DNA from: an uncultured Planctomycetia bacterium
GTDB lineage: Bacteria; Omnitrophota; Gorgyraeia; Duberdicusellales; 4484-171
DNA: 64,000 nt
NCBI GenBank assembly: GCA_964483625.1
Contig: CAZABB010000001.1
Location: 3,222 to 67,221, forward strand
Reading direction: 5' to 3'
This document shows, piece by piece, positions 1 to 64,000 of this stretch. The notes beneath the pieces are model-generated. The model did not search any database, was not told the origin of the DNA, and was given only the letters and a program-made list of their open reading frames with translations. Within the stretch, counting starts at the first letter, position 1. The number at the start of each line of letters is the position of its first letter. The position numbers and the translations under genes were made by a program.

Positions 1-615
1 GTAAGAAACATCGAAAAAGCGACGTCGCTGGGACTGCCGGTTCAGATAAATTTTACCGTAACCCGCGTTAATTTCCGTGAACTTCCTTCCGTATACAGAC
101 TCGCCCGGCGTCTGGGCGTCGGGACGTTTTCAGTCGGTTCCCTGAACAGAATAGGATGCGGCATGCAGAATAAGGATATTTTCTCCCTTCCTTACTTCTT
201 TTATATCTGCTGGGTAAAATTCTGGCAGCGCACACTCGCCCCCGGGGGAAAAACGTTATTTTACATAAAAGAACGGTGCGATGCGAATATCTACACGTAC
301 ATAGACCATAAGGGATATCTTCACTTTTGCACGTTAATACCCCGCACAATGCCTCTGGGCAATCTTCTTAAGGAAGATTTACTTACTATCTGGCATTCGG
401 ATACGTACACACGCCTGTTTGATCTTGACTCTGTCAAGGAGCCCTGCCGGTCCTGTTTTTTTGAAAGGGAATGTCCCAAAGGATGCCGGGCGGAGATTTA
501 CGCCAGAGAAAGCGATTTTTTTGCCGGTAACACTGATTGCCTGCGAGGTAAAGTATCCCAGAAAGTGAAAGGTCTGGCTTCCTTTTTGAAAAAATCCCCC
601 TCAGATCTTTCTTAA
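1..615 (+). CDS. radical SAM/SPASM-domain protein, C-terminal part (5' end lies outside the window)
   Basis: Frame 1 is open from nt 1 (VRNIEKATSLGLPVQINFTVTRV...) to the stop at 615. The C-terminus has a Cys-rich SPASM-like signature (GCG..C..GNLLKEDLLTIWHSD..CRSCFFERECPKGC). Confidence 0.75.
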   Translation, partial: VRNIEKATSLGLPVQINFTVTRVNFRELPSVYRLARRLGVGTFSVGSLNRIGCGMQNKDIFSLPYFFYICWVKFWQRTLAPGGKTLFYIKERCDANIYTYIDHKGYLHFCTLIPRTMPLGNLLKEDLLTIWHSDTYTRLFDLDSVKEPCRSCFFERECPKGCRAEIYARESDFFAGNTDCLRGKVSQKVKGLASFLKKSPSDLS

Positions 616-1833
616 AAATTTCTTTCTCTCTCCGGCTTTGACCGATTTTAATAAATTTATCGCGCTAACCCCGCAAAGACCATAGGTAGGCGGAATATCT
701 CCGTTACAGAGAGGATCTTTTTCCCGGCAGGAGCCTTTTTTGAGAAAAGAATACAGATGGCATCCCCCGCCGCACGTACTTCTGCTTTCACACCGCGCAC
801 AGCCCGCCGGCAGCGCATTCCATATCTTCCTTTTCTTTTGAAGTTTCCGGCATATACTGAGAAGGGATTCTTCCCCGATATTACCCACACGCAACGCCGC
901 GGGGGCTTCGGCACAGGGCAGCACGGACCCATCCTGCATGATCGCGGCGCTGTTATTACCAAAACACGTGCACAGATTGGAACGCAAAAGAGCTTTCGCT
1001 TCAATAACATCGTTCAAGCGGGAATACACCGCCTTTACCGATTTCGACAATTCGGACAGTTCTTCTCTCGACAATTCCAGTTCTTCATTTGTCTTCTCAT
1101 CTTTTACAGGGATATACCGTTCACAGACCGGCAAAGCCCCCATTTCAACGACATCATTGATTATCTCTCTGATATGGCCGATATTGAGTTTTGTCACGAC
1201 AACAAACGCAATCACCATAATGCCGTTTTGAACGCAGGCAGTGATATTTCTTTTTATTCTCTCGAATTGATCGCTACCGGTATGCTTTTCATATATCTTT
1301 CGGTTATAATCGTATTTGACACACAGAATAAGATTGCTATTCATTTTCTTCAATCGTTCCAGCCATTCGTCGTTTATATGCGTTCCATTCGTCACTATCG
1401 TCACCCCCATGCCTCTTCGCTGCGCCGCCGTTAAAAGCCGGTACAAATCCTTATACAAAAACGGCTCTCCTCCCATAAGATCGATATGGGAAACGCCTAT
1501 GGCTCCGGCTTCCTGAATAATACGGATCCATCGCTCGGAAGGGAATACTTCGGGCGCATTTTTGGCCGCGTAGCAGTAGATACAGTTGTAATTGCAGGCT
1601 GACGTAATATGCAGCTGAAGGGTCCGGACAAACGGGAATATTCTCCGGTATATCCTTTGCAGGATAAACCTGAGCCAAGAAATCCGGCAGAAACGATTCA
1701 ACAGCCTCCAGAACATCATCCGATGAAATAAACCGTATCTTTCTGAAAACCGTTCCATTATTCCGCCGTTTCCCGTTTTACCGGCATGATTCATCTTTGC
1801 GGCGGGTTTAGATATAACCTGAAAGGCCGGCAC
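601..1833 (-). CDS. radical SAM enzyme with full SPASM domain
   Basis: CNYNCIYC (CxxxCxxC) plus a GGEPF glycine motif. The C-terminus carries 7 Cys in SPASM spacing (CTCFGN...GNIGEESLL..CARCESRSTCGGGC). The true start is probably the internal Met at 1797 or 1758 (MERFSERY...). The 3' end overlaps the convergent gene at 1..615 by 15 nt. Confidence 0.85.
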   Translation of the reverse strand: MPAFQVISKPAAKMNHAGKTGNGGIMERFSERYGLFHRMMFWRLLNRFCRISWLRFILQRIYRRIFPFVRTLQLHITSACNYNCIYCYAAKNAPEVFPSERWIRIIQEAGAIGVSHIDLMGGEPFLYKDLYRLLTAAQRRGMGVTIVTNGTHINDEWLERLKKMNSNLILCVKYDYNRKIYEKHTGSDQFERIKRNITACVQNGIMVIAFVVVTKLNIGHIREIINDVVEMGALPVCERYIPVKDEKTNEELELSREELSELSKSVKAVYSRLNDVIEAKALLRSNLCTCFGNNSAAIMQDGSVLPCAEAPAALRVGNIGEESLLSICRKLQKKRKIWNALPAGCARCESRSTCGGGCHLYSFLKKGSCREKDPLCNGDIPPTYGLCGVSAINLLKSVKAGERKKFLRKI

Positions 1834-2855
1834 ATTATATTCGTATAAAAGACATTGACCAGAAGATTCCGGTACTCAGGAGCCCGTAGCATCTCTCTTA
1901 TCTCTTTCGAATTTTCCCCGAACCATATTTTTCTGAAATTATAATCGCAGTCCCGGAAATTCCCCAGCACGTAATCCCGTGAGTAACTCGCGCATAACTC
2001 CCCGGAAGACATTACGTAACCGGACGCGATCCCTTCGAAGTTGGCAAGAGAATCGTCATTAAGCAGGTGCGCATAAAACGCTTTCCGCAATTTTCCGATC
2101 AAAGCCGGCGTACCGCCGTTCTTGGTAAAATCGCTTTCTTTTAATAGAAATCTGAGGATATCGCGATATTCTTCTTTATCCGGGGTGATATCGAGATCAA
2201 AGTTGTATAAACGCGCTCTGTTTTCGGCCAATTCGGCGATATAAGAGTCCGGCTTTATTTTCCGGACGAATTCATAGATATCCCGGAAAAAAGCGGCATT
2301 GAACTTCGATATAACCGTGTTGACTCCGACCGTTAATTGAGAACTGGGTATCTTTCTGAGCCCATAAAACGTACGCAGAAACCTTTCGAAATTGCCGCTC
2401 AGGCCGCGTATTTCGTCATGCTTCCTGCCGACTCCGTCCAGGGAAAGATTGATGATCACATTCAAACCCGGGCACGTCTTCAGGATCGTCTCCGCGACCG
2501 AATGAATCCGCTCGGTAAGCGTTCCGTTGGTCGCGATGGTTAAAAACTCCGGTTTGGTCTTTTCATACACAACCTGTATAATACACGCCAGGTCGTCACG
2601 AAGAAAAGGCTCCCCGCCCATAATCGTGACGGAAAAAAGACGGCCATACCCGGTGAAAATCTTCTCGTATTCGGCCGGGGTCAGTTCCCGGGCCGGATCA
2701 CCCCGCGCTTTCCAGATATTGCAGGTCCGGCACCTTGAATTACATCGATCGGTAACACAAAGCGTGAGAACGCGCGGAAGCATTTTGGGATGTCCCGTCC
2801 ACCGGAAAAAATTATACCCTATTATGCTCGGTATGTGTTGAAACATAATCGTCAT
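1791..2855 (-). CDS. radical SAM enzyme with twitch/partial-SPASM C-terminus
   Basis: LCVTDRCNSRCRTC motif and a GGEPFL glycine motif. The C-terminal region has 3 Cys (CASY..RDCDY..NIMCRP). An alternative start is at 2783 (MLPRVLTL...). Confidence 0.8.
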   Translation of the reverse strand: MTIMFQHIPSIIGYNFFRWTGHPKMLPRVLTLCVTDRCNSRCRTCNIWKARGDPARELTPAEYEKIFTGYGRLFSVTIMGGEPFLRDDLACIIQVVYEKTKPEFLTIATNGTLTERIHSVAETILKTCPGLNVIINLSLDGVGRKHDEIRGLSGNFERFLRTFYGLRKIPSSQLTVGVNTVISKFNAAFFRDIYEFVRKIKPDSYIAELAENRARLYNFDLDITPDKEEYRDILRFLLKESDFTKNGGTPALIGKLRKAFYAHLLNDDSLANFEGIASGYVMSSGELCASYSRDYVLGNFRDCDYNFRKIWFGENSKEIREMLRAPEYRNLLVNVFYTNIMCRPFRLYLNPPQR

Positions 2856-4308
2856 CTGCCGTCCGTTTTCCCATTGTTCCCGAGAAAACTTTCCGCAAAA
2901 AATTATGAAAAAACCGGGAAAAAGGTCTTATTTTATAATACATCTTTCTATAGTAAGGGTACAGGAGAAGATAGAGAGTCGTATCTTTGATATGAATACC
3001 CGCCAGAATTCTGACAACCGGCAGCAGAAAATTTCTTTTGACTTCCGAATAAAACACATTGTGGTAGTAACAAATCTTCTTTCCCGAGATCGTCGGGAGA
3101 TCCAATATCGTTTTTCCCTCATTGTATGCCTTTACTTTTCTTTCACTTATGAGACCCTGCCGGACACACGTATCGTACAGTTCGGTCCCGGGATAAGGAC
3201 GGAAAACAAACTGAACCGGAAACGTGGGACGAACCTGCCGATTGAGTGCGATCGTCTGGCGCACGGTATGTTCATCTTCCCCGGGAAGCCCGATGAGATT
3301 CAGCCCAAACGTACGTATGCGGTATGTATCGCATAATTGAAACGCTCTCTTTATCTGTCCATCGGTAAGGTTTCTCCTAAGAAGCCGGTTGCGGAGATAG
3401 ACGTTACCGGATTCGATACCTATACATACCGTGTCGCATCCGGCGCGTTTCAGAAGACGCATCACATTCTCGTTCAGAACCTCCGGTCGGGCGTTTATTC
3501 CAAAAGGCATGTTAATTCTGGATTTATATTCTTTACAAAAACGACTCAAATATTCTTCTTCGAGAGTAAAGATGTCGTCATGAAACGTGATACGGTTGAA
3601 TGTATATCGCGCCGCCAGCTGTTCCAGCTCGCCTATTACATGCTCCACACTTCTTCGCCGTAAAAGCCGGCCTTTTCCCCTGTAAAGTTTGTGAAGGAAA
3701 TTATTTACGCAATAAGGACAATTATACAGGCATCCCCGGCTGGACATGACCTCGGCATCCTTAAATTTCCGGTCATTTATTATTTTCTGATAATCGAACA
3801 TTTCTCGATCCGCATACGGCAGTGAATCCAAATCTTCTATAAGCGGCCCGACCTCATTTTTTATCACGTGCCCGTTTTTATTGAACCAGAAGTTTTTGAT
3901 CCGGCTGATATCTTTTTGTCTTTCCAACGCCGTCACTAAATCCCGAACGGCGTATTCTCCTTCGCCCCGGCATATTCCCGTCACTCCTTTAAGCCCGATA
4001 CTTTCATCCGGGGCCGCGGTAGGATGCGGTCCGCCCAGGATCACCGGGAGACCATACCGGTCGTATATGTATCCCGCGTACCGGGCAACGAGCGTCATCT
4101 GATCCGAAGCGGCATATATGCCGATAAGACGAGGGTTCACCCTGTCGATACACGTATCGATGCCGGTAGGATGAAATGCGCGGGCGACGAAAAGCTCGAC
4201 AGCGTGTCCGGCATCCTTCAGGACGGCCGCAATACTCCCCAAGCCGTGATGATACCCTACATCATTGAAACCCGGACATTCAATGGGATATACGAACAGA
4301 ATGTTCAC
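2812..4308 (-). CDS. cobalamin-binding (class B) radical SAM enzyme
   Basis: N-terminal Rossmann-like B12-binding region (MNILFVYPIE...ILGGPHPT) followed by SRGCLYNCPYC, matching the xRGCxxxCxFC pattern of B12-rSAM proteins. Confidence 0.85.
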   Translation of the reverse strand: MNILFVYPIECPGFNDVGYHHGLGSIAAVLKDAGHAVELFVARAFHPTGIDTCIDRVNPRLIGIYAASDQMTLVARYAGYIYDRYGLPVILGGPHPTAAPDESIGLKGVTGICRGEGEYAVRDLVTALERQKDISRIKNFWFNKNGHVIKNEVGPLIEDLDSLPYADREMFDYQKIINDRKFKDAEVMSSRGCLYNCPYCVNNFLHKLYRGKGRLLRRRSVEHVIGELEQLAARYTFNRITFHDDIFTLEEEYLSRFCKEYKSRINMPFGINARPEVLNENVMRLLKRAGCDTVCIGIESGNVYLRNRLLRRNLTDGQIKRAFQLCDTYRIRTFGLNLIGLPGEDEHTVRQTIALNRQVRPTFPVQFVFRPYPGTELYDTCVRQGLISERKVKAYNEGKTILDLPTISGKKICYYHNVFYSEVKRNFLLPVVRILAGIHIKDTTLYLLLYPYYRKMYYKIRPFSRFFHNFLRKVFSGTMGKRTADDDYVSTHTEHNRV

Positions 4309-4312
4309 CGTA

Positions 4313-5359
4313 CTAAAACCAATTGCAGTGCAGGCACGGCTGAGGAGGACGACCGCTCCTCATCCGAATCCTCCAATCGATAAATCGCTCATTATTCCAT
4401 ATGCGCAAAGGATGCTCCGCGAAGATGTTCCCGAAAAACATATTATGCAATACGCAGCAGGGAAGGACAAATCCTTTCGATGTGATCGACATTTCATGCC
4501 AGGGCTGATAACAGCCCGTCCACCGCTGCGGCTGATTGAGTTTCGGCAGGGTGAGTTTTATGCCGTATTTTTCCGCGGCCTGCTCTGTCTCTCGAAAACG
4601 GGAACGGATCTCTGTTTTCTCTCCCGCCGGCAGGGTGCGTAGCGCATGTTCCGCCGTGGAAATGCCCGTTTCATACACATACTGTATATCCTGAACCCCG
4701 ACTTCGGATATCCCCAACCTGCGGGCAAGCTCTACCAACGCCGGTAATTCATGTATATTATTCCTCATCACAATTGAACGCAGACTCAGCCGAATGGAAC
4801 TTTGGCGTTCTTTCTTCAGTCGGATCATACATTCGATATTCCCCAGCAGCACACCAAATTTCACTCCCGCACGGATACTCTCCACGGTCGCGGCGGTTGC
4901 TCCGTCAATGGAGAAGAAAATCCGGTCAACTCCCGATGAAATCAGCCTCGACGATACGTCATTGGTCAACAGCATCCCGTTGGTGAAAAGAGCGACATGC
5001 AGTTTTCTCTTTTTTGCGTAATGGATCATTTTAAAAATATCCTTATGCAGTAAAGGTTCTCCCATGCCCAGCAGGGTAACGGCGTAAAGAAAAGGCATGG
5101 TATCGACTATTTTCTGAAAATGCCCGAAATCCATTTCGCTCAACCCGTCTTTCTTTATCTCCGGAGCAAACCGGGGACACATCCTACAGTTCAGATTGCA
5201 TTGATCGGTCACCCCGATGACGGCAGAGAAAGGGAAACGGGGAGACCGGGGAATTACGACCATCTGCACGGCATATAAAAACAAATGCGCGGCGCGGCGC
5301 AACGTAAGGTTTTGTAACATATATTTTATGGCAAAAATGATCCGGTTTTTTATCTTCAT
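4313..5359 (-). CDS. radical SAM enzyme with SPASM domain
   Basis: IGVTDQCNLNCRMC and GMGEPLL motifs. C-terminal SPASM region reads CYQPWHE..PCC..FGNIFAEHPLRIW...CLHC. Confidence 0.85.
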   Translation of the reverse strand: MKIKNRIIFAIKYMLQNLTLRRAAHLFLYAVQMVVIPRSPRFPFSAVIGVTDQCNLNCRMCPRFAPEIKKDGLSEMDFGHFQKIVDTMPFLYAVTLLGMGEPLLHKDIFKMIHYAKKRKLHVALFTNGMLLTNDVSSRLISSGVDRIFFSIDGATAATVESIRAGVKFGVLLGNIECMIRLKKERQSSIRLSLRSIVMRNNIHELPALVELARRLGISEVGVQDIQYVYETGISTAEHALRTLPAGEKTEIRSRFRETEQAAEKYGIKLTLPKLNQPQRWTGCYQPWHEMSITSKGFVLPCCVLHNMFFGNIFAEHPLRIWNNERFIDWRIRMRSGRPPQPCLHCNWF

Positions 5360-14061: not shown

Positions 14062-15429
14062 ATGAATATAAAAGTAGCGTTGATTAATCCGACAATCAAA
14101 GAACTTCAAGCAAGCGAAGTACCCTTGCACTTGGGGTATATCGCGGGACACCTGGAACAAAACGGTATCGAAGTAATAATCATAGACCAGGCGGCCGGGG
14201 ATGATGTGGAGAGAGAAATCGATTCTTATCGTCCCGACATAATCGGCATCAGCAGTATGTCGGCCATGATAGGCGAAGCCTATAGAATAGCGGACATGTG
14301 CCGTAACAGAGGAATCCTCACCGTCATGGGAGGAGAACATGCCAGCGCGTTGCCGGAAGAAGCACAGGAACACGCCGATGTAGTTGTGGCAGGGGAAGGA
14401 GAGATAGCTATGCTGGATATCGTCAGAAAAAAAATCACATCCGGCATCATATCCGGTCCCCAGCTGGAAGATATAGACGATCTGCCGTTATATCCCTGGC
14501 ATCTTATCAACCAGACATACTATCTCAATTTATCAAACGAAACGAAACTGGCCACCCTTGCTTTTCTCGGCTCCCGTCTCTCTTCGGCCAAAACGAGTTC
14601 ATTTCTTACCAGCCGGGGATGTCCCTTTCACTGTACCTTCTGCCATAACAGTCTGAGACAGGTTCATTTCAGATTCCATAGCGCCGAGAGGATAGTAGAA
14701 GAGATGAAACGCCTCAGGGTAGATTACGGCGTTGAAGCCATAGCGTTTTTAGACGAGAATTTTCTGTTGAATAAGACAAGGCTTGAGAAAATTTGCCGTA
14801 CCATACGAAAAGAAAAGCTCAGTGTCCTATGGAGCTGTGCCAGTTCGGCTCATTTCGTCGACGCACAATCTGTCCGGATGATCCGGGATGCCGGATGCCG
14901 GCAGGTATCCTTCGGCGTAGAAAGCGGCTCGCAAAGAATTTTGGACATTCTGAATAAGTCCGTTACGGTAGAACAAAATAAAAAGGCAATCAAAATCTGC
15001 CGGGAAGCCGGATTGATCGTGCACGGTTCATTCATGCTGGGAAATCCCACGGAGACCGTCGAAGATGTAAAATTAACCCAAAAGTTCATTCTCGAGACCG
15101 ACATCGAAAGCTACCGTATCAATATCACCACGCCCTATCCCGGCACGAAACTCTGGGAACTCTACCACGAACAAATTCCCCGGCCTATTGACTGGCATCG
15201 TTTCGAAGCAAGCACCAATATCGAGACATACCCCTATACCCCATTCAGCAGGGAAGAACTCAAACGCCTGTTCTTTGAAACTTCGCTGATAAAGCCGGCG
15301 ATATATAAACGGGACTGGAAAATGGCGCTGCGTTATCCAAAAGAAACGATTTCCTGGGGTATCCGGCATCCGTTGACAGCAACGAGAATTATCGCAGGGA
15401 AATATAATATGAGAAGCATGCAAGACTGA
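14062..15429 (+). CDS. cobalamin-binding (class B) radical SAM enzyme
   Basis: MNIKVALINP..B12-binding Rossmann region, SRGCPFHCTFC. The start is placed at the ATG after the GGAAAG SD. The in-frame upstream ORF from 13789 is probably not translated. Confidence 0.85.
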   Translation: MNIKVALINPTIKELQASEVPLHLGYIAGHLEQNGIEVIIIDQAAGDDVEREIDSYRPDIIGISSMSAMIGEAYRIADMCRNRGILTVMGGEHASALPEEAQEHADVVVAGEGEIAMLDIVRKKITSGIISGPQLEDIDDLPLYPWHLINQTYYLNLSNETKLATLAFLGSRLSSAKTSSFLTSRGCPFHCTFCHNSLRQVHFRFHSAERIVEEMKRLRVDYGVEAIAFLDENFLLNKTRLEKICRTIRKEKLSVLWSCASSAHFVDAQSVRMIRDAGCRQVSFGVESGSQRILDILNKSVTVEQNKKAIKICREAGLIVHGSFMLGNPTETVEDVKLTQKFILETDIESYRINITTPYPGTKLWELYHEQIPRPIDWHRFEASTNIETYPYTPFSREELKRLFFETSLIKPAIYKRDWKMALRYPKETISWGIRHPLTATRIIAGKYNMRSMQD

Positions 15430-18966: not shown

Positions 18967-19022
18967 CCAGAGGACATTCAATCCATGGCGGCGGGATTTT
19001 TCATTCTACCGGAATATCAGAC

Positions 19023-21738: not shown

Positions 21739-21761
21739 CCGTGCGAAAAAGAAGATGCCTT

Positions 21762-24797: not shown

Positions 24798-24804
24798 AAC
24801 CCTG

Positions 24805-40289: not shown

Positions 40290-40304
40290 CGGGGTTTGAG
40301 GATT

Positions 40305-42164: not shown

Positions 42165-42228
42165 CTCGTGAATTATTATATGGGAAAAAGGTCTGATTGC
42201 AAGAAGAAATTAGAAGTGGGAAGAGAAA

Positions 42229-42312
42229 TGCGAGGGAGGGGATTTGAACCCCTACAGTATCGCTACCGCTAGCCCCTCAAGCTAGTGCGTCTGCCAGTTC
42301 CGCCACCCTCGC
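42229..42312 (-). tRNA. tRNA-Leu (anticodon GAG), class II tRNA with long variable arm
   Basis: The reverse complement GCGAGGGTGGCGGAACTGGCAGACGCACTAGCTTGAGGGGCTAGCGGTAGCGATACTGTAGGGGTTCAAATCCCCTCCCTCGCA folds as a cloverleaf. It has a 7-bp acceptor stem, an anticodon stem CTAGC/GCTAG with loop TTGAGGG (anticodon GAG), a TPsiC arm GGGGTTCAAATCCCC and discriminator A. CCA is not encoded. Confidence 0.85.
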
Positions 42313-44924: not shown

Positions 44925-45001
44925 GAGCGTTGAAAGTATCTTAACATCGTTACCGCCGATAATCAACGGGCTCAAACCGCCAGTCTTGACGAAGAGGAAA
45001 A

Positions 45002-48412: not shown

Positions 48413-48681
48413 TGGACATGATTGTTTCTCTTTTTATCGCGATATACGCGTTCTTTCTTCCCGGCTACCTGGTCACAAAAACCAGTCGTATCGGCAATGG
48501 TCTGTTTACTACGATAATTCTCAGCATTGCCATAAGCATAACACTGATTCCTATTATCGCCTTCTCGCTCGCAATGATTTTTCATACGGTCATACATTAC
48601 GCAACAGTTACGATCGCGGCAACTCTCGTCAACCTGATCTGCATCGGCCACCGCTATCTTAAAAAGGTCAAAACACAATGA
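48412..48681 (+). CDS. small membrane protein (89 aa, 3 predicted TM helices)
   Basis: Start and stop codons overlap both neighbours. Almost entirely hydrophobic (IVSLFIAIYAFFLPGYLV...IILSIAISITLIPIIAFSLAMIF...). Confidence 0.5.
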   Translation: MDMIVSLFIAIYAFFLPGYLVTKTSRIGNGLFTTIILSIAISITLIPIIAFSLAMIFHTVIHYATVTIAATLVNLICIGHRYLKKVKTQ

Positions 48682-50344: not shown

Positions 50345-51745
50345 CTACGAAAGCCGCAAACAGATTTTTACGGCGGTTTTGAAAACCTGCAGATAATCCA
50401 GCCGGATACGCGTGAGAAAAAAGATCGTCAATTCCAGAAGCTTACGGGGACGGAAATAAAACTGTTTAAGGATCTCGCGGTGCAACCGGGTAAGTTCATC
50501 GGTGCTTAATGTATCGTTACGGATAATAGATTTACGTAAAAACACGTAATCATCCCAGTTGTCGGAAAGAATACGGTTTTCTTTCAGGCACTCGGCATAT
50601 AATTGCGTTCCCGGCAGAGGCGCGGCAAAAGAAAGCTGTAAAGTGTGGGGATTCAATGTGAAGATCTTCTTCTTGGTATAAAGGATATCTTCTTTTGTCT
50701 GATGGGGAAAACCGATAATCGCATAGCCCATGGCGATAATCCCCTGTCGTTTGATGCGGTCGATTGCTTCGGCGATCTGCACCTCGGTAATATCTTTCTT
50801 AAGGATCGAAAGATTCCGATCATGAGCACTCTCGATACCAATACCAATCTGGAGGCAGCCTGATCGTTTCATCACCTTAAGGGTATCTTCATCTAAAAGA
50901 TCGACACGGGTGTTACACACCCAGCGGATACGCCGATTAAGGTTATGCTGAATGATGCCAGTACATACTTGCCGGACAAAATCCGGCTGGACGGTGAAGG
51001 TATGGTCGATAATCGCAAAATAAGAGGTATTAAACGTGTGAATGCATTGTTCTATTTCCCCGACAATCGCCTCCGGTTTCCTTAGACGCGCCGCGCCGGG
51101 ATACAACAAATGGCTGTCACAAAATACGCACCTTCCCGGACACCCGCGGCTCGTACGCAAAGCGGTTACGTGACGCCGATAAGGAGATGAATATAAATCA
51201 TTAGGCAGCAGGTCCCGGGCCGGATAAGGTAACGAATCAAGATCCGCAATCACAGGATGATTTTCGGTAGAGACAATCTGGCCGTGTTCACGATAGGTGA
51301 TACCTTTGATCGACGCCAATGATGCTCTCTGTGCTGCCGCTTCGATAACCTGGGCAACGACCCGTTCCGGCTCTCCCCGGACGACGACATCCAGCCCCTC
51401 GATCTCCTTCAGCGTCTGGTGAGACAGAGCCGAAGCATGTGTCCCGATCAGAACAGTCATTACATTATTTTTTTTAAGCAGGTTGATCAGACGCTTGACA
51501 GAATTGACCGAATAGGTTTGTGCGGTAAATACGGCAACGTTAGGCCTCACCGCCAGAAGACGTACCCCTTGGGCACTTTCATGCAATTTAAGTACATTCG
51601 CATCAAGTATCGATATATCGAAATCGGGATTACGCCGGCGCAGAAAAGACGCGCAATAGGCGAGATCCAAAGGAGGAACAACACTGAGCAGAGAAGTATG
51701 TTCTACCTTTCGCTGATAGTATGTATTGGAAAAAATTACTCTCAT
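50345..51745 (-). CDS. cobalamin-binding (class B) radical SAM enzyme
   Basis: TSRGCPGRCVFCDS and an N-terminal B12-like Rossmann region (DISILDANV...VLIGTHAS). Confidence 0.85.
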   Translation of the reverse strand: MRVIFSNTYYQRKVEHTSLLSVVPPLDLAYCASFLRRRNPDFDISILDANVLKLHESAQGVRLLAVRPNVAVFTAQTYSVNSVKRLINLLKKNNVMTVLIGTHASALSHQTLKEIEGLDVVVRGEPERVVAQVIEAAAQRASLASIKGITYREHGQIVSTENHPVIADLDSLPYPARDLLPNDLYSSPYRRHVTALRTSRGCPGRCVFCDSHLLYPGAARLRKPEAIVGEIEQCIHTFNTSYFAIIDHTFTVQPDFVRQVCTGIIQHNLNRRIRWVCNTRVDLLDEDTLKVMKRSGCLQIGIGIESAHDRNLSILKKDITEVQIAEAIDRIKRQGIIAMGYAIIGFPHQTKEDILYTKKKIFTLNPHTLQLSFAAPLPGTQLYAECLKENRILSDNWDDYVFLRKSIIRNDTLSTDELTRLHREILKQFYFRPRKLLELTIFFLTRIRLDYLQVFKTAVKICLRLS

Positions 51746-51749: not shown

Positions 51750-52895
51750 TCAGAATCCGCCTAAAGAAGACACCCAGTTAGGACTCACTTCACACCCCAG
51801 CCAGCACTTCCCGCAATGAACGACCTTGCGCAATTTATTTTTCGCGATCGGTTTATTCAAGATATCCGAATATGATTCCCGTTTAACATTTCCCAAAACT
51901 TCGGTATCATAGCTACAAGTGATTATATCACCATTGGGATGAAGACGGAAATGCGTAAATAAATTCATACAGCGATGCTGCGGCATACGTCCCGTCTGAA
52001 GCACATTCATTTGTCCCTTTAGATAGTGAGCCAGAATGATGCGTTCAAGGATATGTCGCCACGAGCCGCTTCCCTTTACCCCAAGAGAAAGGATATCCGT
52101 AGTAAGATTTTGGCGAATATAATCCCGAACCGGAGCGCTGAATTCTATCAGACCATAATCAGCCCGTTCGATTCCTCCCTCTTTCAACCCGACAAAACCG
52201 CGGTAGTCTACGTCCAAATCATCGGCAAGTTTTTTCACCCGAGGGATTTCATGTACATTCTCCGGAAAAACAGTCTGATTGACGGCAAGGAAAAGTTTTT
52301 TCCGGCTGAAACGGCTCCTGAGACGCCGGAGAGTATCTACGGCACGGGAGAAACTTCCTTCCTTCCCGCGTAACGCATCGTGTGTCGTGCTCATGCCATC
52401 GATACTGACTTTGAGATCGAGTGAAACCCCTCGCTTCTTTAACAACATGATCTTCCCGACAATGTCCTCGGTAGCATATCCGTTGGTTGTAATATGAAAG
52501 ATGCGCGGTTTGATGCGGGAATGAAACGCTAAAAGGATTTCGGTTAAATCTTCTTTCAAGAAAGGTTCACCTCCCGTGATCACCACGGCATCAATATTAT
52601 GTAACATATTGTCTTCAAGCATGTTACGAATATCCTTCTCCCGGAGTTCTTCATGATTTTTTTCGGCAGGAGAGCGCCAAGCTCCGCAATGTTTACAGGC
52701 GAGATTACAGCGGAACGTAACCGCATAATTAACCAGAAACGGCCGGGACGGTCTATTCAAGCCGCGGCGCACATTCGCACGAAGAAAACGAAAGAGATAA
52801 GAAGCCATCATACGCATTTTTTTCTCAGCAGATAGAGAACAATCCTTTTTAAACGCCGGGGGGGAAGATAAAACAGTAAAGGAGCAACGCAACAA
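51750..52895 (-). CDS. radical SAM enzyme with SPASM domain
   Basis: VTFRCNLACKHC and TGGEPFL motifs. C-terminal region CSYDTEVLGNV...ILN...CGKCWLGC. The start is probably at 52817 (MRMMASYLF). Confidence 0.85.
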   Translation of the reverse strand: MLRCSFTVLSSPPAFKKDCSLSAEKKMRMMASYLFRFLRANVRRGLNRPSRPFLVNYAVTFRCNLACKHCGAWRSPAEKNHEELREKDIRNMLEDNMLHNIDAVVITGGEPFLKEDLTEILLAFHSRIKPRIFHITTNGYATEDIVGKIMLLKKRGVSLDLKVSIDGMSTTHDALRGKEGSFSRAVDTLRRLRSRFSRKKLFLAVNQTVFPENVHEIPRVKKLADDLDVDYRGFVGLKEGGIERADYGLIEFSAPVRDYIRQNLTTDILSLGVKGSGSWRHILERIILAHYLKGQMNVLQTGRMPQHRCMNLFTHFRLHPNGDIITCSYDTEVLGNVKRESYSDILNKPIAKNKLRKVVHCGKCWLGCEVSPNWVSSLGGF

Positions 52896-54208
52896 GATAA
52901 ACCAACGAAATATCTTCCCAGCCCTTTATATTGAACAATATCGGAAACCCCGTGGTAATAGCGGTTCCAGGATACCTGAGGGAACCGGTTGAAATAGTCG
53001 GTCCCGGGATAGGGAGTTAACGAATAGAAGTGCGCGAAATCAAGGGAAGAACATACCGTCTGAAATATCGTATTAACGACGGTTTTCTTTGTCTGCCCTT
53101 CCAGTCCGAAAATGAAATATCCATATGTCATTATGTCGTGCTTTTTTAAAATATCAATACCTCTCAATATATCCGGGCCTTTGATATATTTCCGATTACG
53201 ATGCAAAACCCTTTCGTCAAAAGATTCAATTCCCAAAGACAGCAACATGCAACCGGATTCTTTCATCAAAGCCGCCGTCTCTTCATCCACCACATCAACC
53301 CGCGAGTTAGAGACCCATCGGATATCGAGCCGCTCATCAATAATGCGCCGGGTAAGATTTTTCACGAAATCCTTATCGGCATTGAACGTATCGCACAGGA
53401 AGAGAAACGTATCAATGCCGCAAGTTTCTTTTACCTCGCGGATTTCGGCGATGATATTGCCGACCGAGCGGGCGCGCCAGCCTCGTCCGTAATAGGACCG
53501 GGAGGTACAGAATGAACAGGCCGAGTCGCATCCACGCGAGACTTTCACCACAGAAAATTTCTTCCCCGTAAAGGGCATAATATACCGTTCATTTTTCAGG
53601 AGAGACCGGTCGGGAAGAACCGGATAGTCGTAGCTGACGCGGGACTTCCTTCTTTCGTTTACTTTAATCACCCCGTTTCGGTACGCCAGCCCCCGGATCT
53701 CACCCAGAGGTCTCCCTTCTCCCGAGAGCGATTCCATCAGCTCACATATCGTCTCTTCCGGTTCGCCCTGTACGGCAAAATCAACGGCTTCTTCTTCCAA
53801 TAATTTACGGGGGAAAACCGTGGCGTGAAGGCCGGTAAAAATGATACGCAGATCCTTATTCTTTTGCTTTAACCGGCGGGCTAAAAAGACATCGTCCTCG
53901 ATTGTCGGCGTGGTCGCCTGAATAATCACAGTCGACGGCTCTCGGCATAATATCTCCTTGACCAATTCCTCAAAAGAGAATCCTTCGATTTCTCCGTCAA
54001 GAATATCTATATTATGAAAGCCCCGATGCCGGAGATAAACGGCGATCTCCAAAAGGGTAATCGGCGGCCATAATCCTACGGCAGGCAGAACTTTCTGCTG
54101 ACAGCGTTCAACACGCAGGACTTTCTTACCGGACCGCGTAACCGGATTGCATAAAAGAATCTTCTCTTTTTTTGTCATTGCGTTTATCGAACAAAGGATT
54201 TGTAACAA
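52808..54208 (-). CDS. cobalamin-binding (class B) radical SAM enzyme
   Basis: SRGCDSACSFCTS and an N-terminal B12-like region. The start is possibly at 54178 (MTKKEKILLCNPV). Confidence 0.85.
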   Translation of the reverse strand: MLQILCSINAMTKKEKILLCNPVTRSGKKVLRVERCQQKVLPAVGLWPPITLLEIAVYLRHRGFHNIDILDGEIEGFSFEELVKEILCREPSTVIIQATTPTIEDDVFLARRLKQKNKDLRIIFTGLHATVFPRKLLEEEAVDFAVQGEPEETICELMESLSGEGRPLGEIRGLAYRNGVIKVNERRKSRVSYDYPVLPDRSLLKNERYIMPFTGKKFSVVKVSRGCDSACSFCTSRSYYGRGWRARSVGNIIAEIREVKETCGIDTFLFLCDTFNADKDFVKNLTRRIIDERLDIRWVSNSRVDVVDEETAALMKESGCMLLSLGIESFDERVLHRNRKYIKGPDILRGIDILKKHDIMTYGYFIFGLEGQTKKTVVNTIFQTVCSSLDFAHFYSLTPYPGTDYFNRFPQVSWNRYYHGVSDIVQYKGLGRYFVGLSCCVAPLLFYLPPRRLKRIVLYLLRKKCV

Positions 54209-55880
54209 GGAAATTTTCCATGATCAGATAATCCAGACCGGCCTGGAAGAACGTATCCAGAGCTTCTCGCGGCGTACAGACAATCGGTTCGTGGTGCATA
54301 TTAAAGCTGGTATTGATCAGACTGGGAATGCCGGTCAGACGATGATACTCCTTAAGTATGTCATACAATAAAGAATTATCGTGCTCTTTTAAAATTTGAG
54401 GCCGGGCCGTCCTGTCCCGATACACGACCCCCGGAGATACCGCTTCCATCCACGGGGTACACTCAAGACTAATGGTCATAAACCGCGCCGCCGTCTCTGC
54501 TCCAGAAACATTCTTATAACACGCGTCTTTATATTCAAAAAGCGTAACGGGCGCGAAGGGCATAAATTCGGACCGGCGCAGTTTTTTGTTCAGCCAGTCA
54601 TTTACGCTTTTATCGGTTGTCTGATAAAGAATACTGCGGTTACCCAGCGCCCGCGGGCCGTATTCGGTCGCCCCCTGAAAAACCGCTACGGTAGCTCCGC
54701 GCGATAATAATCGGGCCGCTTTTGCTTCGAGACGTTTTTCTTTTTGATATCTCAGATGGTTTTGTTCGAGCATTCCTGCGATATGGGCATCCGAATAGCG
54801 GGGCCCCAGATATACATGAGAAAGACGGACGGAGGAAGAAAAAGAAATCCCCGAGTATTCGCTCTCTCCTTTTTTTTCCTGTGACGCCGCGGCAAAAGAA
54901 AGCCCACCGTCGCCCATATGGGGGAAAACAAAAATTTTCCCGAACAACCCGGTTGCGTGTAACCGCTGGTTTACTTTGACATTGGCAAAAAGCCCTCCGG
55001 CCAGGAAAAGATCGGGACCCTTTTTCTCTCCGACGCAGTTTTTTATCAGCCCTACCACGGTATGTTCAACCGTCCTCTGTAAAGAAAAAGCAACGTCTTT
55101 TTTTCTGTATCGTTTGAGCATTTTGAAAAAACGCCGGGTGCGGTAGAAAGGATCGACGAAAACGTCCTTCCCTTCTATCGTGAACAGCGATTTAAATATC
55201 TTCCCCAGAGAAGTGGCACTTCCGTATTCGGCCAGGGCGACCACCTTGCCTTCTTCTCCTTCTCTAAACCCCAGAGCAGCAGTAACATAGGCATACACCA
55301 GGGCAATGCTGTGTTTATACGATATCTCCTGCCGCAAGACTACCCGGTCGTCTCTGACCCGGACAATCAGCCCCGCTTTCCCGTCGCCATACGCATCCAG
55401 AGATACTGCCAGATAATTCCGGGAAGGAATCCCGGTACAGGCGGAAATAATATGCGCCTGGTGATGATCGACCAGATGAAGGCTGCCGAAAGAAATCCCC
55501 ATCCGTCTCAACCGGACGGCAAGGATCCACCGGCTGAATGTGGATTCCATCTCTCTTAAAAGGGGAAGAGAAGCTGTTTTATTTTCATACTGGTAGACGG
55601 CACGGGAAGGGAAAGAAAGAATATTCTTTTGAGGCGAACCTGTACGATACAAATTATTCAACAATCGAAACGGCGCCCGGCCGTAGCGGCCTCCGATATA
55701 TACGGCATCTATCGTCTTTGTTCCGATGATTCCTTTGATATATTTTAATGAACGGTAAGGGAACCCCTGTTGTCGTTTACGGCGGCTAAAGCGTTCTTCC
55801 GAACATGCAATCACAACATTCCCATTCTCGATGAGAATGGCGGAGGCATCATGGCTATCGTTTATTCCTAACGCAATCAT
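54126..55880 (-). CDS. carbamoyltransferase, NodU/CmcH/TobZ family
   Basis: MIALGINDSHDASAILIENG..EERFSRRK. Length 584 aa. The C-terminal region (ATEYGPRALGNRSILY...IPSLINTSFNMHHEPIV) is nearly identical in motif to the protein at 48678. Confidence 0.85.
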   Translation of the reverse strand: MIALGINDSHDASAILIENGNVVIACSEERFSRRKRQQGFPYRSLKYIKGIIGTKTIDAVYIGGRYGRAPFRLLNNLYRTGSPQKNILSFPSRAVYQYENKTASLPLLREMESTFSRWILAVRLRRMGISFGSLHLVDHHQAHIISACTGIPSRNYLAVSLDAYGDGKAGLIVRVRDDRVVLRQEISYKHSIALVYAYVTAALGFREGEEGKVVALAEYGSATSLGKIFKSLFTIEGKDVFVDPFYRTRRFFKMLKRYRKKDVAFSLQRTVEHTVVGLIKNCVGEKKGPDLFLAGGLFANVKVNQRLHATGLFGKIFVFPHMGDGGLSFAAASQEKKGESEYSGISFSSSVRLSHVYLGPRYSDAHIAGMLEQNHLRYQKEKRLEAKAARLLSRGATVAVFQGATEYGPRALGNRSILYQTTDKSVNDWLNKKLRRSEFMPFAPVTLFEYKDACYKNVSGAETAARFMTISLECTPWMEAVSPGVVYRDRTARPQILKEHDNSLLYDILKEYHRLTGIPSLINTSFNMHHEPIVCTPREALDTFFQAGLDYLIMENFLVTNPLFDKRNDKKREDSFMQSGYAVR

Positions 55881-55889: not shown

Positions 55890-58121
55890 TCACAGGTAGC
55901 TTTCCGGCTCGCCATAGAAAAAATGTATGGAGAATTCTCCCCCTTTGTCTCTCTGGATACACCAGGAATCGCGACGATAGGAAGCCCCGTCTTCTCCGTT
56001 CACAAACCAATTATGTATGAGCACTTTCATGTCGTCGGGGATGCGAATAACAATAGACTGTTGCTGATGCAAAAGAGGAAAGGCGGGAAGGGCGGGTTGA
56101 CGCGCGCTATGCCGAGGAGAATCCGGCGAATGCACACGGATGGGACTCACGACATCGAGTCCGAACGAATTATTGCCAGAGGAAGAAAAGGCATTCAGGT
56201 CTATCGTGCAGGTTTTTAGATAATCGATTTTTTTCGGATCGATAAAAACGCAAACGGGAAGAGACTCCGCCTGCCACGTCACCTCAAGATCAGTATAATA
56301 GAGATCGTACAGCTCCTCACGGTTCACAAGGTCAATTGCCGGCAGTTCTTCATGAGGGATTATACGAATCGCATCCTGAATATCATTACAGAGTTTTTCA
56401 AAGTTAATCTTAATATAAACCTCTCTCGGCTTTGAATCTTTTCCCGGAGAAGAAAACGGACATTTATGGTTACCGAGAACATCCCATTGAGAATAAAACT
56501 CTTTAAATCGGGTATAACGCGGTAGGTTATGCGGGGGAAACAGCTGATTCAGCGCAAGCTGTTCTTTTTTTCGTTTATGTGTGAAATCCAATTTGGTGAA
56601 AAGTCTCCGGTAGTTCGGGAGAAAAGGGGTTTGCGATACCGTACCCCTTGCCAGCCGATAATACGCGTGGCTCTCTGTCTGATAGAGCGGATAACGTTCG
56701 TAAAAACTCTTGTCCTGAGGAAAATCAAGAGATGCGGCAAAACGGATGCACCCAAAAAGAAACAGCAGGTTTAAAGCAAAAAGTCCTATCTTTTTCATGT
56801 TCATTCTACGAATGAGGCTTTCGGCCCCGCAGGCAAAAAACACATAGAGAGGCAAAAAGGCCGTCACGATGATCCGATACTTATCGCTCTGGATCCAGTT
56901 GCGCTGAACCGAAAGCACTCCCAGTACCGCAAGGAAGAAGGAAAGAAGAAACAACGCTTTTTTACGATCCCGGCCAAAAACGGAACCCAGCCCGAACAGA
57001 ATAATTGCCGAAATGAGATAGCCAAAGTAATTAATTATATTCACAGTGTAGAAAAGTAAGTTCGGAAAAGGCACAAAGGGCGTCCTCATCCATCGCGTAA
57101 AAGACTCCTTGAGCAGGCTCAAGGAAGAACGCGTTTCCCCCAGACTCTGAAATCCATGGTGCATAAGATGGGGGATGTTAAAAGAAAACGTGAACAGCCC
57201 GGCAACAAAAAAAAGCATATAGTCCTTTGCGCCCTTTTCCTCCCGATAGTACCAGAATAGCACCGGGATGAGGCAGAGAAGAGAAAGAAAGCGCAAGCCC
57301 GTGCCGGCCATGATGCCGAACATAAGACCGTGAAGGATGACTTTATTTTTATGGAAAAATATCGTATAAATAAAAACAGCCGACAATGCGAGATTGATAA
57401 CGTTGCGGTCCAAAACCTCTATCGATAACACATAAGGGTTGAAAATTGCGAAACAGGCGCCAAGGCAGGCAATAATATCGGGCAAGAACATTCTTTGGAG
57501 GATAAGATAAACAAATATAAAAAGGAGAATCGCAAAGGATATATATACCGCTTTAAACGTGGCCAACTTAAGAAGGGGAAGAAAAGGTGCGGTAAAAAGA
57601 GTATTGCCCGGGGTATTAATAATCGCTGAAACCGCGGGCACAAGTCTCTCTGAATACCCTTGAGGATTTAAGAGTCCATAGAGACGGAACGTCTGCATCG
57701 CAAAACAATCCGCTTCTCCTCGGAGAACATACGAACCAAGTGATAAAATAAATGCTTCGTTGGAATAATAGAAAAAAGAAACCATGCCCGTTAGTAAAAT
57801 CAGAAACAAAAATAACCAGCGACGTTTTAACTCAGAACATATGCGTTCAAAGGTTAAAGTTACTCTGTTTATTTCGTGGCGGAAATATACCAGGCAAAAA
57901 AATACGGTGACATAGAGACAGGAGAACGAAAGGATAAGCCAGAGGTTGATATAATAGTTGAGCCAGAGTGAAAGGTTGACGGCCAAAAACGGGAGGCAGG
58001 TAAGACTAAAAAAGACGGTAAAACCTGTTTTTTCCGGCAGGGGGGCATGTTGAAAAAAATATTCTGTGGTTAAAAAACCCGCAGCGAGGATAAGCAATAA
58101 CAGAGCTGTTACCAGTAACAT
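55890..58121 (-). CDS. polytopic membrane protein, putative GT-C-like glycosyltransferase with large C-terminal periplasmic domain (paralog of 46694..48412)
   Basis: About 14 TM helices in the first ~470 aa and a ~270-aa soluble C-terminal domain. Blocks are shared with the protein at 46694. Confidence 0.55.
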   Translation of the reverse strand: MLLVTALLLLILAAGFLTTEYFFQHAPLPEKTGFTVFFSLTCLPFLAVNLSLWLNYYINLWLILSFSCLYVTVFFCLVYFRHEINRVTLTFERICSELKRRWLFLFLILLTGMVSFFYYSNEAFILSLGSYVLRGEADCFAMQTFRLYGLLNPQGYSERLVPAVSAIINTPGNTLFTAPFLPLLKLATFKAVYISFAILLFIFVYLILQRMFLPDIIACLGACFAIFNPYVLSIEVLDRNVINLALSAVFIYTIFFHKNKVILHGLMFGIMAGTGLRFLSLLCLIPVLFWYYREEKGAKDYMLFFVAGLFTFSFNIPHLMHHGFQSLGETRSSLSLLKESFTRWMRTPFVPFPNLLFYTVNIINYFGYLISAIILFGLGSVFGRDRKKALFLLSFFLAVLGVLSVQRNWIQSDKYRIIVTAFLPLYVFFACGAESLIRRMNMKKIGLFALNLLFLFGCIRFAASLDFPQDKSFYERYPLYQTESHAYYRLARGTVSQTPFLPNYRRLFTKLDFTHKRKKEQLALNQLFPPHNLPRYTRFKEFYSQWDVLGNHKCPFSSPGKDSKPREVYIKINFEKLCNDIQDAIRIIPHEELPAIDLVNREELYDLYYTDLEVTWQAESLPVCVFIDPKKIDYLKTCTIDLNAFSSSGNNSFGLDVVSPIRVHSPDSPRHSARQPALPAFPLLHQQQSIVIRIPDDMKVLIHNWFVNGEDGASYRRDSWCIQRDKGGEFSIHFFYGEPESYL

Positions 58122-63414: not shown

Positions 63415-63497
63415 CTTCTTCCTACAACACTGTCAATTTTTAAACAATTTTACCCCTGTTCTTTCTATTTTCGATCACTATCTCATCAGGATTCATC

Positions 63498-64000
63498 CTA
63501 CCTGGTTTTTGTGTAAGCAGATAATATCTGCTGAGCAGTCGTCGTCCAGTTATACCTCTCCTGAGCCCGCCGACGCGCTTTTACGCCTATTTGTCGTTTA
63601 TATTTTTCATTGTCAATAATCTTGCATATGCCCTGCGCCAGAGACTCGATGCTTCCGGGCTCGGCAAGAACTCCGCCGTCGCCGAGCATAGTGCTTATTT
63701 CTCCTACTTCACTGGCCACGATAGCTTTGCCGGAAGCTAAATATTCGGCGATCTTAAGAGGGCTTTTACAGCGAGTCACGTCGTTGTCCTCAAAACATGC
63801 GACGCAGACATCTGCGGCAGCGACATAATGAGGTATCTGATTATGGGTGACCGCTCCGGTAAAAATAACCCGGGATTGAATGCCTAATTCTTCGGCACGT
63901 TTTTTTAAACGGCCTGACTGATATCCTTCTCCGACAATCATAAAATATATATCTTTCTCATACTTACGAAGCACATGCTCGGCGGTATCGATAAAAAGAT
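63498..64000 (-). CDS. GT4 (GT-B) glycosyltransferase, C-terminal domain only (5' end beyond window)
   Basis: The C-terminal GT-B domain (VIFTGAVTHNQIPHYVAAADVCV..SPLKIAEYLASGKAIVASEVGEISTM) is encoded here. The N-terminal ~200 aa domain must lie past nt 64000. Confidence 0.7.
   Translation of the reverse strand, partial: LFIDTAEHVLRKYEKDIYFMIVGEGYQSGRLKKRAEELGIQSRVIFTGAVTHNQIPHYVAAADVCVACFEDNDVTRCKSPLKIAEYLASGKAIVASEVGEISTMLGDGGVLAEPGSIESLAQGICKIIDNEKYKRQIGVKARRRAQERYNWTTTAQQILSAYTKTR

Follow-up and report, generated by a model that had tools for sequence, protein, structure and literature searches.

The 64-kb window analysed here (the whole stretch of 64,000 nucleotides, from contig CAZABB010000001.1 of an uncultured Omnitrophota bacterium) encodes 16 radical S-adenosylmethionine (rSAM) proteins interleaved with glycosyltransferases (GTs), and on balance it is probably a composite cell-envelope glycan region in which rSAM enzymes tailor sugars. 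We base this prediction on the domain content of the window, the intact motifs of its rSAM genes, the coupling of these genes in operons, and the finding that members of the S10, S9, and S4 families (named after rSAM genes of the window, Table 1) are repeatedly linked or fused to GTs in other genomes. A preliminary description of the same DNA had proposed an rSAM-based glycan-tailoring system; the neighbourhoods of the S10 family and a set of rSAM-GT fusions now favour this proposal for the SPASM/twitch enzymes, and the B12-binding rSAMs have no direct comparative support.

The gene set consists of 49 substantial, non-nested open reading frames (ORFs), all translated and scanned against Pfam, at a coding density of 98%. 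Sixteen encode rSAM proteins, six of the B12-binding and ten of the SPASM/twitch class (Pfam, together with alignment to an S10 profile), which agrees exactly with the earlier count of six and ten (roughly one gene in three). Besides these, the window contains 13 GTs (seven GT2, two GT4, and four GT-C, three of the latter recognised as PMT_2 by Pfam and the fourth by hhalign), three NodU/TobZ-type carbamoyltransferases, two CE4 deacetylases, two GDSL hydrolases, and three transmembrane (TM)-anchored tetratricopeptide repeat (TPR) proteins. An ABC ATPase with an ABC-2 permease, a WbuX-like amidotransferase, a PP-loop ATPase, a myo-inositol-1-phosphate synthase (MIPS), a TIM-barrel isomerase-like protein, a short-chain dehydrogenase/reductase (SDR), an S-adenosylmethionine (SAM) methyltransferase, and a GH5-like protein each occur once. 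All of the accompanying enzymes on which the preliminary description had relied (MIPS, carbamoyltransferases, amidotransferase, deacetylases, GT-C, ABC-2 exporter, and TPR proteins) are thus present. Even with a generous expectation of three rSAM genes, the probability of finding at least 16 among 49 genes is below 1e-7, and the rate in control loci (1.08 Mb) gives an expectation of 0.12. The genes form five directons, within which rSAM and GT genes overlap or lie at most 97 nt apart; the rSAM/GT adjacencies listed earlier are real, and most of their junctions are of this kind. The density of rSAM genes does not stem from recent gene amplification, because B6 and B7 are the sole close pair (74% identity) and every other pair is only 20–32% identical. 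A foreign island recognisable by composition was also considered and ruled out, GC content being uniform across the window (42–50%).

The rSAM genes are intact at the level of their motifs. PF04055 matches the 15 complete genes at 35–98 bits (gathering threshold 29.5), the sixteenth, S0, having its N-terminus off the window; the CX3CX2C motif is kept in all 15, their ORFs are intact, and pseudogenisation, which the preliminary description had named as a possible objection, was not found. Nine genes carry the SPASM domain PF13186, and six combine PF04055 with an N-terminal B12-binding domain (PF02310). By their C-terminal cysteines, the ten SPASM/twitch proteins include two with a full seven-cysteine SPASM motif (S0 and S1, with CX2CX5CX3C), five with CX17C...CX2C (S4, S8, S10, S12, and S14), and three variants (S9, S11, and T2), and they are predicted to bind one (twitch) or two (SPASM) auxiliary Fe-S clusters. 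All ten align to the S10 profile, the nine complete ones over nearly the full length of the profile, including T2, which has no Pfam SPASM match and aligns almost end to end (hhalign 99.4%). The deposited NCBI protein for S12 (P0121, 319 aa) begins at MCPFVN, inside the CX3CX2C motif (CNLHCAMC), and the frame is open upstream, so that the radical SAM cluster site is cut short in the public annotation.

Evidence for a link to glycan assembly comes from S10 relatives elsewhere. A metagenome scan returned 20 full-length relatives, and neighbours were counted in the 18 family loci of at least 3 kb and in 79 control loci. GT or epimerase genes are present in 12 of the 18 family loci versus 3 of the 79 controls (Fisher p = 1e-8), and further rSAM genes in 7 versus 2 (Fisher p = 7e-5). 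For S10, the best-sampled family, the homologous loci are therefore mostly loci with GTs or nucleoside diphosphate (NDP)-sugar enzymes, and not the GT-less peptide loci that the preliminary description had named as a counter-case. Examples assigned by Pfam are L103 (six rSAM genes, a GT2, a GT28-like GT, and an NDP-sugar 4,6-dehydratase on one strand), L090 (GT2, B12-rSAM, S10-like rSAM, rSAM, carbamoyltransferase), and L100 (Wzx, GT2, GT4, rSAM, two GT4, epimerase); L097 contains a methyltransferase (by BLAST to a window protein) followed by rSAM, AsnB, and two GT2 genes. In four metagenomic loci, an S9-like rSAM gene lies directly upstream of an S10-like one. The best homologue of S10 (33% identity, 95% coverage) belongs to a module of NAD-epimerase/dehydratase, rSAM, GT, and YdjC deacetylase genes with housekeeping genes around it, and the module recurs in L091, where the flanking proteins are 45–50% identical to those of L087. 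In L087 (9045-13162), L088, and L091 this four-gene module, with a twitch rSAM and a Glyco_trans_1_3 GT, stands amid aminoacyl-tRNA synthetase and ribosomal genes; its logic is like that of HpnI/HpnK/HpnJ, and it offers a minimal experimental system.

Fusions point in the same direction. An exhaustive search with S10 gave 60 cluster representatives at E <= 1e-30, and long proteins were examined among the best 148 relatives. Forty-two of these 148 have at least 600 aa, of which, by BLAST to window proteins, 12 carry GT and two carry methyltransferase domains; the remaining long relatives are mostly chains of 2–5 rSAM domains. One fusion is a 2,918-aa ORF of locus L094 (9968-18721, JGI contig Ga0105104_10000001), in which an N-terminal S10-like rSAM/SPASM domain with intact motifs is joined to an FkbM methyltransferase, a GT4 domain, and four GT2 domains (Pfam). 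Because it is encoded between FlgK/flagellin-like genes and FliD, we regard it as a candidate radical-SAM megaenzyme of flagellar glycosylation. Giant proteins in which rSAM and GT1 domains occur together are noted independently in a preprint on Omnitrophota. The chains, as single polypeptides of 650–1,900 aa with 2–5 rSAM domains, include P0161, P0182, P0195, P0211, P0233, and about 25 others; P0211 combines a B12-rSAM with four rSAM stretches (BLAST to window proteins).

Cultured carriers exist as well. Searching plasmids with S4 mostly matched those of Brachyspira, and on pBHWA1 of Brachyspira hyodysenteriae (NC_012226) 7 of the 32 genes encode rSAM/SPASM proteins amid rfbABCD, rfbF, a GDP-mannose dehydratase, and several GTs. 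All seven keep CX3CX2C; six of them have the CX17C...CX2C pattern and align over nearly the whole S10 profile (Bh_7270 over only about 100 residues), and their best match in the window is S4 (30% identity over 300 aa, E = 1e-35). A gene block with rSAM, GT, epimerase, and rfbC genes is missing from reduced-virulence B. hyodysenteriae strains (PMC4267127). Like the window, pBHWA1 interleaves several twitch rSAMs with GTs and NDP-sugar enzymes, but it is a plasmid of a spirochaete, its rSAMs are less than half as numerous, and it lacks B12-class rSAMs, GT-C, carbamoyltransferases, MIPS, and an ABC-2 exporter, whereas its canonical rfbABCD/rfbF genes have no counterpart in the window. The S4 search also recovered a Methylobacterium operon consisting of a GT87 (GT-C), an S4-like rSAM, a GT2, and an aminotransferase, and a Miltoncostaea locus in which a GT2 gene accompanies an rSAM and an rSAM/SPASM gene. 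In the literature on O-antigen, capsule, polysaccharide or extracellular polysaccharide, flagellin glycosylation, and Omnitrophota, we found no paper describing such rSAMs other than the one on the Brachyspira plasmid; a paper on the Kuenenia S-layer O-glycan was rejected as a precedent, as it mentions neither rSAM nor gene clusters. The earlier statement that a system of this kind had not been described was thus too strong: the window is the richest known, extreme example of a real kind of locus that was recorded in Brachyspira without enzymology, and not a categorically new system.

The product is predicted to be an envelope glycoconjugate and not a soluble aminoglycoside, as had been argued before, because the window combines GT2/GT-C pairs, an ABC-2 exporter, CE4 deacetylases, TPR proteins, and a GH5-like protein, and has no aminotransferase or 2-deoxy-scyllo-inosose (DOI) synthase. 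Twice, a GT2 gene encoding C-terminal TM helices adjoins a GT-C gene (10227/11191 and 27803/28841), which is the layout of a polyprenyl-phosphate-sugar synthase with its periplasmic transferase. The 743-aa membrane protein is probably a fourth GT-C, as it is a remote homologue of the PMT_2 protein encoded at 46694 (hhalign 98.8%, E = 6e-17). The ABC-2 exporter pair (18963-20634) is translationally coupled to B7, with S8 next downstream. Its position inside a GT cluster resembles Wzm/Wzt systems, with the difference that an initiating enzyme of the WecA/WbaP type is missing among the 49 ORFs. Membrane-anchored GT2 and PMT_2-type GT-C proteins, a CE4-family deacetylase, and an SDR are shared, in architecture only, with Arn/Gtr systems; unlike Arn, the window lacks ArnA and ArnB and has rSAMs where Arn has NAD- or PLP-dependent enzymes. 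No flippase was recognised among the window ORFs; the 89-aa hydrophobic ORF at 48412-48681 may be a candidate ArnE/F- or GtrA-like flippase for lipid-linked sugars. Two more small hydrophobic ORFs occur on the minus strand (35504-35665 and 35677-35895).

From this gene content, sugar chains would be built by cytoplasmic GT2 and GT4 enzymes, polyprenyl-phosphate-sugars would be made by the membrane-anchored GT2 enzymes and transferred outside the membrane by the neighbouring GT-C enzymes, and the product would leave through the ABC-2 pump, with carbamoyltransferases, CE4 deacetylases, the amidotransferase, and the methyltransferase contributing to tailoring. The substrates and reaction types of the rSAMs, and the participation of every one of them, are what we infer. 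About eight twitch enzymes may abstract hydrogen from sugar C-H bonds of nucleotide- or lipid-linked sugars, leading to oxidation, epimerisation, decarboxylation, or dehydration; the TokK/CysS-like B6 and B7 may C-methylate sugars; and the HpnJ/AprD4-like B3, B5, B13, and B15 may rearrange or dehydrate them. Some rSAMs may act on polyprenyl-phosphate-linked sugars before GT-C transfer, in an Arn-like scheme with radical enzymes replacing the NAD- or PLP-dependent ones. C-methylation, as in the heavily C-methylated glycan of the preliminary description, is conjectural. Among solved structures, the one nearest to B5 and B13 is AprD4, which carries a B12-binding domain yet is described as a diol-dehydratase, not a methylase.

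Several observations weigh against a sugar-tailoring role for these enzymes or against the window acting as one system. We compared whole-protein NCBIfam scores of all 16 rSAMs with the curated cut-offs and searched the PDB by sequence with ten of them. The classification called for earlier could assign superfamily and subgroups, and none of the 16 reaches any curated NCBIfam cut-off (best scores 52–208 bits against cut-offs of 380–700 bits); no function is therefore transferable, and the reaction types above are guesses. The top sub-threshold families are HpnJ for B3 and B5, BchE and then HpnJ for B13 and B15, and KedN5/PhpK for B6 and B7, with a mixture of tungsten-cofactor maturase, NirJ/Ahb, PqqE, and peptide maturases for the twitch/SPASM proteins. 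AprD4 scores are 75–102 bits (cut-off 500), S10 scores 55 bits against BlsE (cut-off 400), and B6/B7 score 154 bits against the KedN5 family (cut-off 700). In the PDB, S10 and S4 match BlsE, BtrN, PqqE, and DesII (their C-terminal domains matching BtrN), B5 and B13 match AprD4, B6 matches TokK and CysS, and S8, S12, S14, and T2 match SkfB and Tes, SkfB coming first. For the AlphaFold (AF2) model of S10 (predicted local distance difference test, pLDDT, 83.6), the closest structure is that of BlsE, which is a sugar-acid decarboxylase, and SkfB, SuiB, and CteB come next. Since these weak matches mix sugar-, peptide-, and lipid-acting enzymes, the substrate class (sugar versus peptide) is not separable by similarity of sequence or fold.

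The comparative record holds further points of this kind. Support for the B12 class is indirect, through L090 and a locus of another Omnitrophota genome (L002, see below). The nearest non-paralogous homologue of B6/B7 among 5.8 billion proteins is only 33% identical, so that these two form a lineage-specific B12-rSAM family, and five B6 homologues (about 30% identity) lie in unrelated contexts (a carotenoid cluster, housekeeping genes, planctomycete-type genes, and a phage-like stretch). A homologue search with S12 gave two relatives only, which makes it effectively an orphan. One S10 relative, P0127, lies among rSAM/SPASM genes with 61–71-aa ORFs, an arrangement that looks like a locus for ribosomally synthesised peptides with post-translational modifications (RiPPs). 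Domains of the fused proteins were assigned by BLAST, with a Pfam check for L094 only. S0 and S1, with full SPASM domains at the window edge, may belong to another system. No initiating polyprenyl-phosphate phosphoglycosyltransferase of the WecA/WbaP type was found among the 49 ORFs by Pfam, and such a gene may lie outside the window.

The window is also not a single unit: purC, the gene for GTP-dependent phosphoenolpyruvate carboxykinase (PEPCK), and tRNA-Leu(GAG) interrupt it mid-way (39402-42312), and it therefore comprises two loci or more instead of a single island. Identical proteins are present on a 137-kb NCBI contig and in the Logan run SRR7048225, which no paper was found to cite. 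In a set of 185,579 species genomes, the best match to PEPCK (67% identity) is in a Candidatus Omnitrophota metagenome-assembled genome (MAG), at locus L002, where purC is 73% identical; many other Omnitrophota follow at 55–59%. There, PEPCK-purC is flanked by four rSAM genes (one B12-binding), a TPR protein, AsnB, and a GT2, and the other 79 PEPCK loci have nothing similar. The rSAM-locus proteins of L002 are only 28–32% identical to those of the window, so the block is not conserved as a unit, a point that the preliminary description had wanted checked. Position is conserved but the contents have become different, which is what a hypervariable surface-glycan locus would be expected to show.

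Among other explanations, we regard it as unlikely, though the least so, that the SPASM/twitch rSAMs mature a ribosomal peptide or protein that is subsequently glycosylated, in a glycosylated RiPP or glycoprotein system. Peptide maturation is the classical role of SPASM enzymes, and the SkfB matches, the seven-cysteine motifs of S0 and S1, and the small ORFs around P0127 would all fit. Distant S1-like relatives stand beside ABC exporters and other rSAM genes (for example L132, L141, L146, and L164), and for L094, in its flagellin locus, a protein target is conceivable. Peptide maturation is opposed by the lack of a PqqD or RRE domain in any rSAM (Pfam), by the mostly short N-termini (CX3CX2C starts at residue 29–63 in seven of nine), and by five intergenic gaps in which, at the high coding density of the window, no plausible precursor ORF is found and the small ORFs are hydrophobic, a weak negative as short peptides are easily missed. 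Further, the NDP-sugar epimerases/dehydratases, YdjC, and Wzx that neighbour the S10 family act on sugars, not peptides.

Still less probable is a soluble cyclitol- or aminoglycoside-like or Nod-factor-like metabolite, with a carbocycle made by MIPS, BtrN/AprD4/GenK-like rSAM chemistry, TobZ/NodU-type carbamoylation, and DrrA/NodI-like export. Oxidation, decarboxylation, deamination, dehydration, and C-methylation of sugars are all within the reach of rSAMs, as is established from BtrN, BlsE, DesII, AprD4, and GenK, and the nearest solved relatives of S10, S4, B5, and B13 are BlsE, BtrN, DesII, and AprD4; the twitch spacing in the window equals that of BtrN, the S10 model is near BlsE, and B5 and B13 are near AprD4. 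MIPS, the TIM-barrel isomerase-like protein, the SDR, and four rSAMs share one directon, and the three NodU/TobZ-family enzymes, the CE4 (NodB-family) deacetylases, and the DrrA/NodI-like ATPase would also suit such a product. The likeness has its limits in the scores, however, which are 25–83 bits with no NCBIfam cut-off reached, and in the context, which is secondary-metabolite clusters for the antibiotic enzymes and envelope glycan assembly here. Although MIPS is present as in an aminoglycoside cluster, no DegT/sugar aminotransferase, DOI synthase, or resistance gene was detected among the 49 ORFs by Pfam, nor is there a regulator; four GT-C enzymes with polyprenyl-phosphate-sugar-type GT2 partners, TM-anchored TPR proteins, and an exported GH5-like protein are more in line with an envelope product, and relatives of the rSAMs occur in Wzx-type, flagellar, and rfb loci. 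B6 and B7 resemble TokK (95 bits) and CysS (84 bits) in the PDB and the KedN5 family; neither TokK, which acts on a carbapenem, nor CysS, which acts on a peptide natural product, has a sugar as its substrate.

The slimmest chance goes to tailoring of membrane lipids or glycolipid head groups (HpnH/HpnJ/HpnP, Tes, or ladderane-type) instead of a polysaccharide, for which speak HpnJ as the best NCBIfam match of B3 and B5 and second of B13 and B15, weaker matches to the lipid B12-rSAM family TIGR04072 and to Tes, the HpnI/HpnK/HpnJ-like L087 module (GT, YdjC, and rSAM), and an MGDG-synthase-like GT with a DUF3463 (HpnH-type) rSAM in L103, but which is countered by scores far under the cut-offs (HpnJ 136–186 bits against 578), by a window in which Pfam finds no squalene/hopene, fatty-acid, polyketide, or ether-lipid genes, and by the overlap of its head-group version with envelope glycan tailoring itself. 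The genes for HpnI, HpnK, and HpnJ are all needed for the cyclitol ether of bacteriohopanetetrol (BHT; PMC5462960). The resemblance lies in the combination of a GT and a sugar de-N-acetylase with a B12-domain rSAM whose substrate is a lipid-linked amino sugar; the window differs in having no hopanoid genes and in its deacetylases, which are CE4 and not YdjC (YdjC being found in L087).

Table 1. Genes and other features of the 64-kb window in order of position.
Feature	Position	Strand	Remarks
S0	1..615	+	3' part of rSAM/SPASM gene running off window start; PF13186; frame 1 open from base 1
S1	601..1833	-	rSAM, full SPASM domain CX2CX5CX3C (7-Cys); PF13186
T2	1791..2855	-	rSAM, twitch-like C-terminal domain, 3 Cys
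B3	2812..4308	-	B12-binding rSAM (PF02310 + PF04055); top match HpnJ, below cut-off
S4	4313..5359	-	twitch rSAM, CX17C...CX2C; PF13186
NAD-dependent epimerase/dehydratase	5457-6425	-	Pfam
GDSL-like hydrolase	6469-7515	-	Pfam
Xylose-isomerase-like TIM barrel	7549-8373	-	Pfam
MIPS	8386-9513	-	411 bits to INO1, below 638-bit cut-off
SAM methyltransferase	9474-10220	-	Pfam
GT2	10227-11249	-	2 C-terminal TM helices
GT-C PMT_2	11191-12783	-	
GT2	12835-13854	-	
B5	14062..15429	+	B12-binding rSAM (PF02310 + PF04055); nearest HpnJ (NCBIfam), AprD4 (PDB)
B6	15482..17230	+	B12-rSAM, tandem paralogue of B7; nearest TokK, CysS, KedN5-type C-methylases
B7	17227..18966	+	B12-rSAM, tandem paralogue of B6; nearest TokK, CysS, KedN5-type C-methylases
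ABC ATPase	18963-19838	+	PF00005; DrrA/NodI-like, sole subfamily match DrrA, below cut-off
ABC-2 permease	19810-20634	+	PF01061
S8	20680..21738	+	twitch rSAM, CX17C...CX2C; PF13186; 3' end overlaps GT4 gene by 25 nt
GT4	21714-23003	+	
GT2	22972-23889	+	
GT2	23883-24797	+	
S9	24715..25914	+	rSAM, variant SPASM/twitch domain; PF13186
CE4 polysaccharide deacetylase	25907..26680	+	
S10	26706..27806	-	twitch rSAM, CX17C...CX2C; PF13186; 4-nt overlap with upstream GT2
GT2	27803-28837	-	3 C-terminal TM helices
GT-C PMT_2	28841-30622	-	
GT2	30573-31658	-	
S11	31541..32662	-	twitch rSAM, variant cysteine pattern; PF13186
S12	32663..33901	-	twitch rSAM, CX17C...CX2C; PF13186
Carbamoyltransferase 1	33792..35483	-	NodU/TobZ-type
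N-acetyl-sugar amidotransferase	35899-36912	-	WbuX-like
GDSL+TPR protein	36905-38572	-	
GT2	38602-39384	-	
purC, GTP-dependent PEPCK, tRNA-Leu(GAG)	39402..42312	-	housekeeping; tRNA by Rfam
GH5-like protein	42804..44975	-	N-terminal TM helix or signal
CE4 deacetylase	45002-45970	+	
PP-loop ATPase	45994-46701	+	
GT-C PMT_2	46694-48412	+	
89-aa hydrophobic ORF	48412-48681	+	~3 TM helices; between GT-C gene and carbamoyltransferase 2
Carbamoyltransferase 2	48678-50342	+	
B13	50345..51745	-	B12-rSAM; nearest BchE, HpnJ, AprD4
S14	51750..52895	-	twitch rSAM, CX17C...CX2C; PF13186
B15	52808..54208	-	B12-rSAM (PF02310 + PF04055)
Carbamoyltransferase 3	54126..55880	-	
743-aa membrane protein	55890..58121	-	at least 10 TM helices; no Pfam match
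TPR protein	58292-61609	-	N-terminal TM helix
TPR protein	61663-63414	-	N-terminal TM helix
Partial GT4	63498-63974	-	

Some features of the window stand apart from glycan assembly. The purC and PEPCK genes belong to the directon of the GT2 gene at 38602, with spacers of 15–17 nt (38602-42164), and PEPCK-purC adjacency is found again in many Omnitrophota and related MAGs. An Rfam scan of the window for riboswitches and other RNAs returned tRNA-Leu only. Next to it, at 42298-42562, is a perfect tandem direct repeat of a 124-nt unit (42298-42421 and 42422-42545, 100% identical) with a 17-nt partial third copy, and the repeat begins with the 5' 17 nt of tRNA-Leu(GAG) (42229-42312, minus strand); the repeat could have arisen when integration left an att-like duplication of part of the tRNA, or it could be an assembly artefact. 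GC skew is negative in nearly all 2-kb bins regardless of coding strand (cumulative -3.1), which suggests that the entire window lies on one replichore; the exception is 56–58 kb, where a T-rich membrane-protein gene has strong AT skew. In locus L082 (ENA NODE_3045), a run of about 20 very small genes that lack annotation, with MerR-like regulators, comes before a B6 homologue (32% identity), after which there are an rSAM, a B12-rSAM, a TPR protein, and a DegT aminotransferase. The locus may represent a phage or mobile element with rSAM and sugar genes as its cargo.

Returning to rSAM tailoring of envelope sugars, a wider proposal can be made, which we hold tentatively and with slightly more doubt than belief: that a widespread, so far overlooked class of twitch rSAMs serves cell-surface glycans (polysaccharide, lipooligosaccharide, or flagellar), often fused to GTs or strung into multi-rSAM chains, and that through diversification in this lineage a battery of about 16 enzymes introduces modifications accessible to radical chemistry only (C-methyl, deoxy, epimerised, decarboxylated, and carbocyclic sugars) into an envelope polymer. 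If true, this would be an anaerobe's route to glycan hyper-diversity. To our knowledge, most of the radical SAM superfamily has no known function, and we know of sugar-acting rSAMs almost only from antibiotic pathways. The S10, S9, and S4 families, the epimerase-rSAM-GT-YdjC modules, the rSAM-GT fusions, and pBHWA1, with its virulence-correlated rSAM block, are targets for study, and they would, if the prediction holds, yield new O2-independent enzymes for sugar C-H functionalisation. If these enzymes do tailor surface glycans, radical chemistry would be a general and overlooked source of the surface-sugar diversity that affects evasion of phages and predators, host colonisation, and antigenicity.

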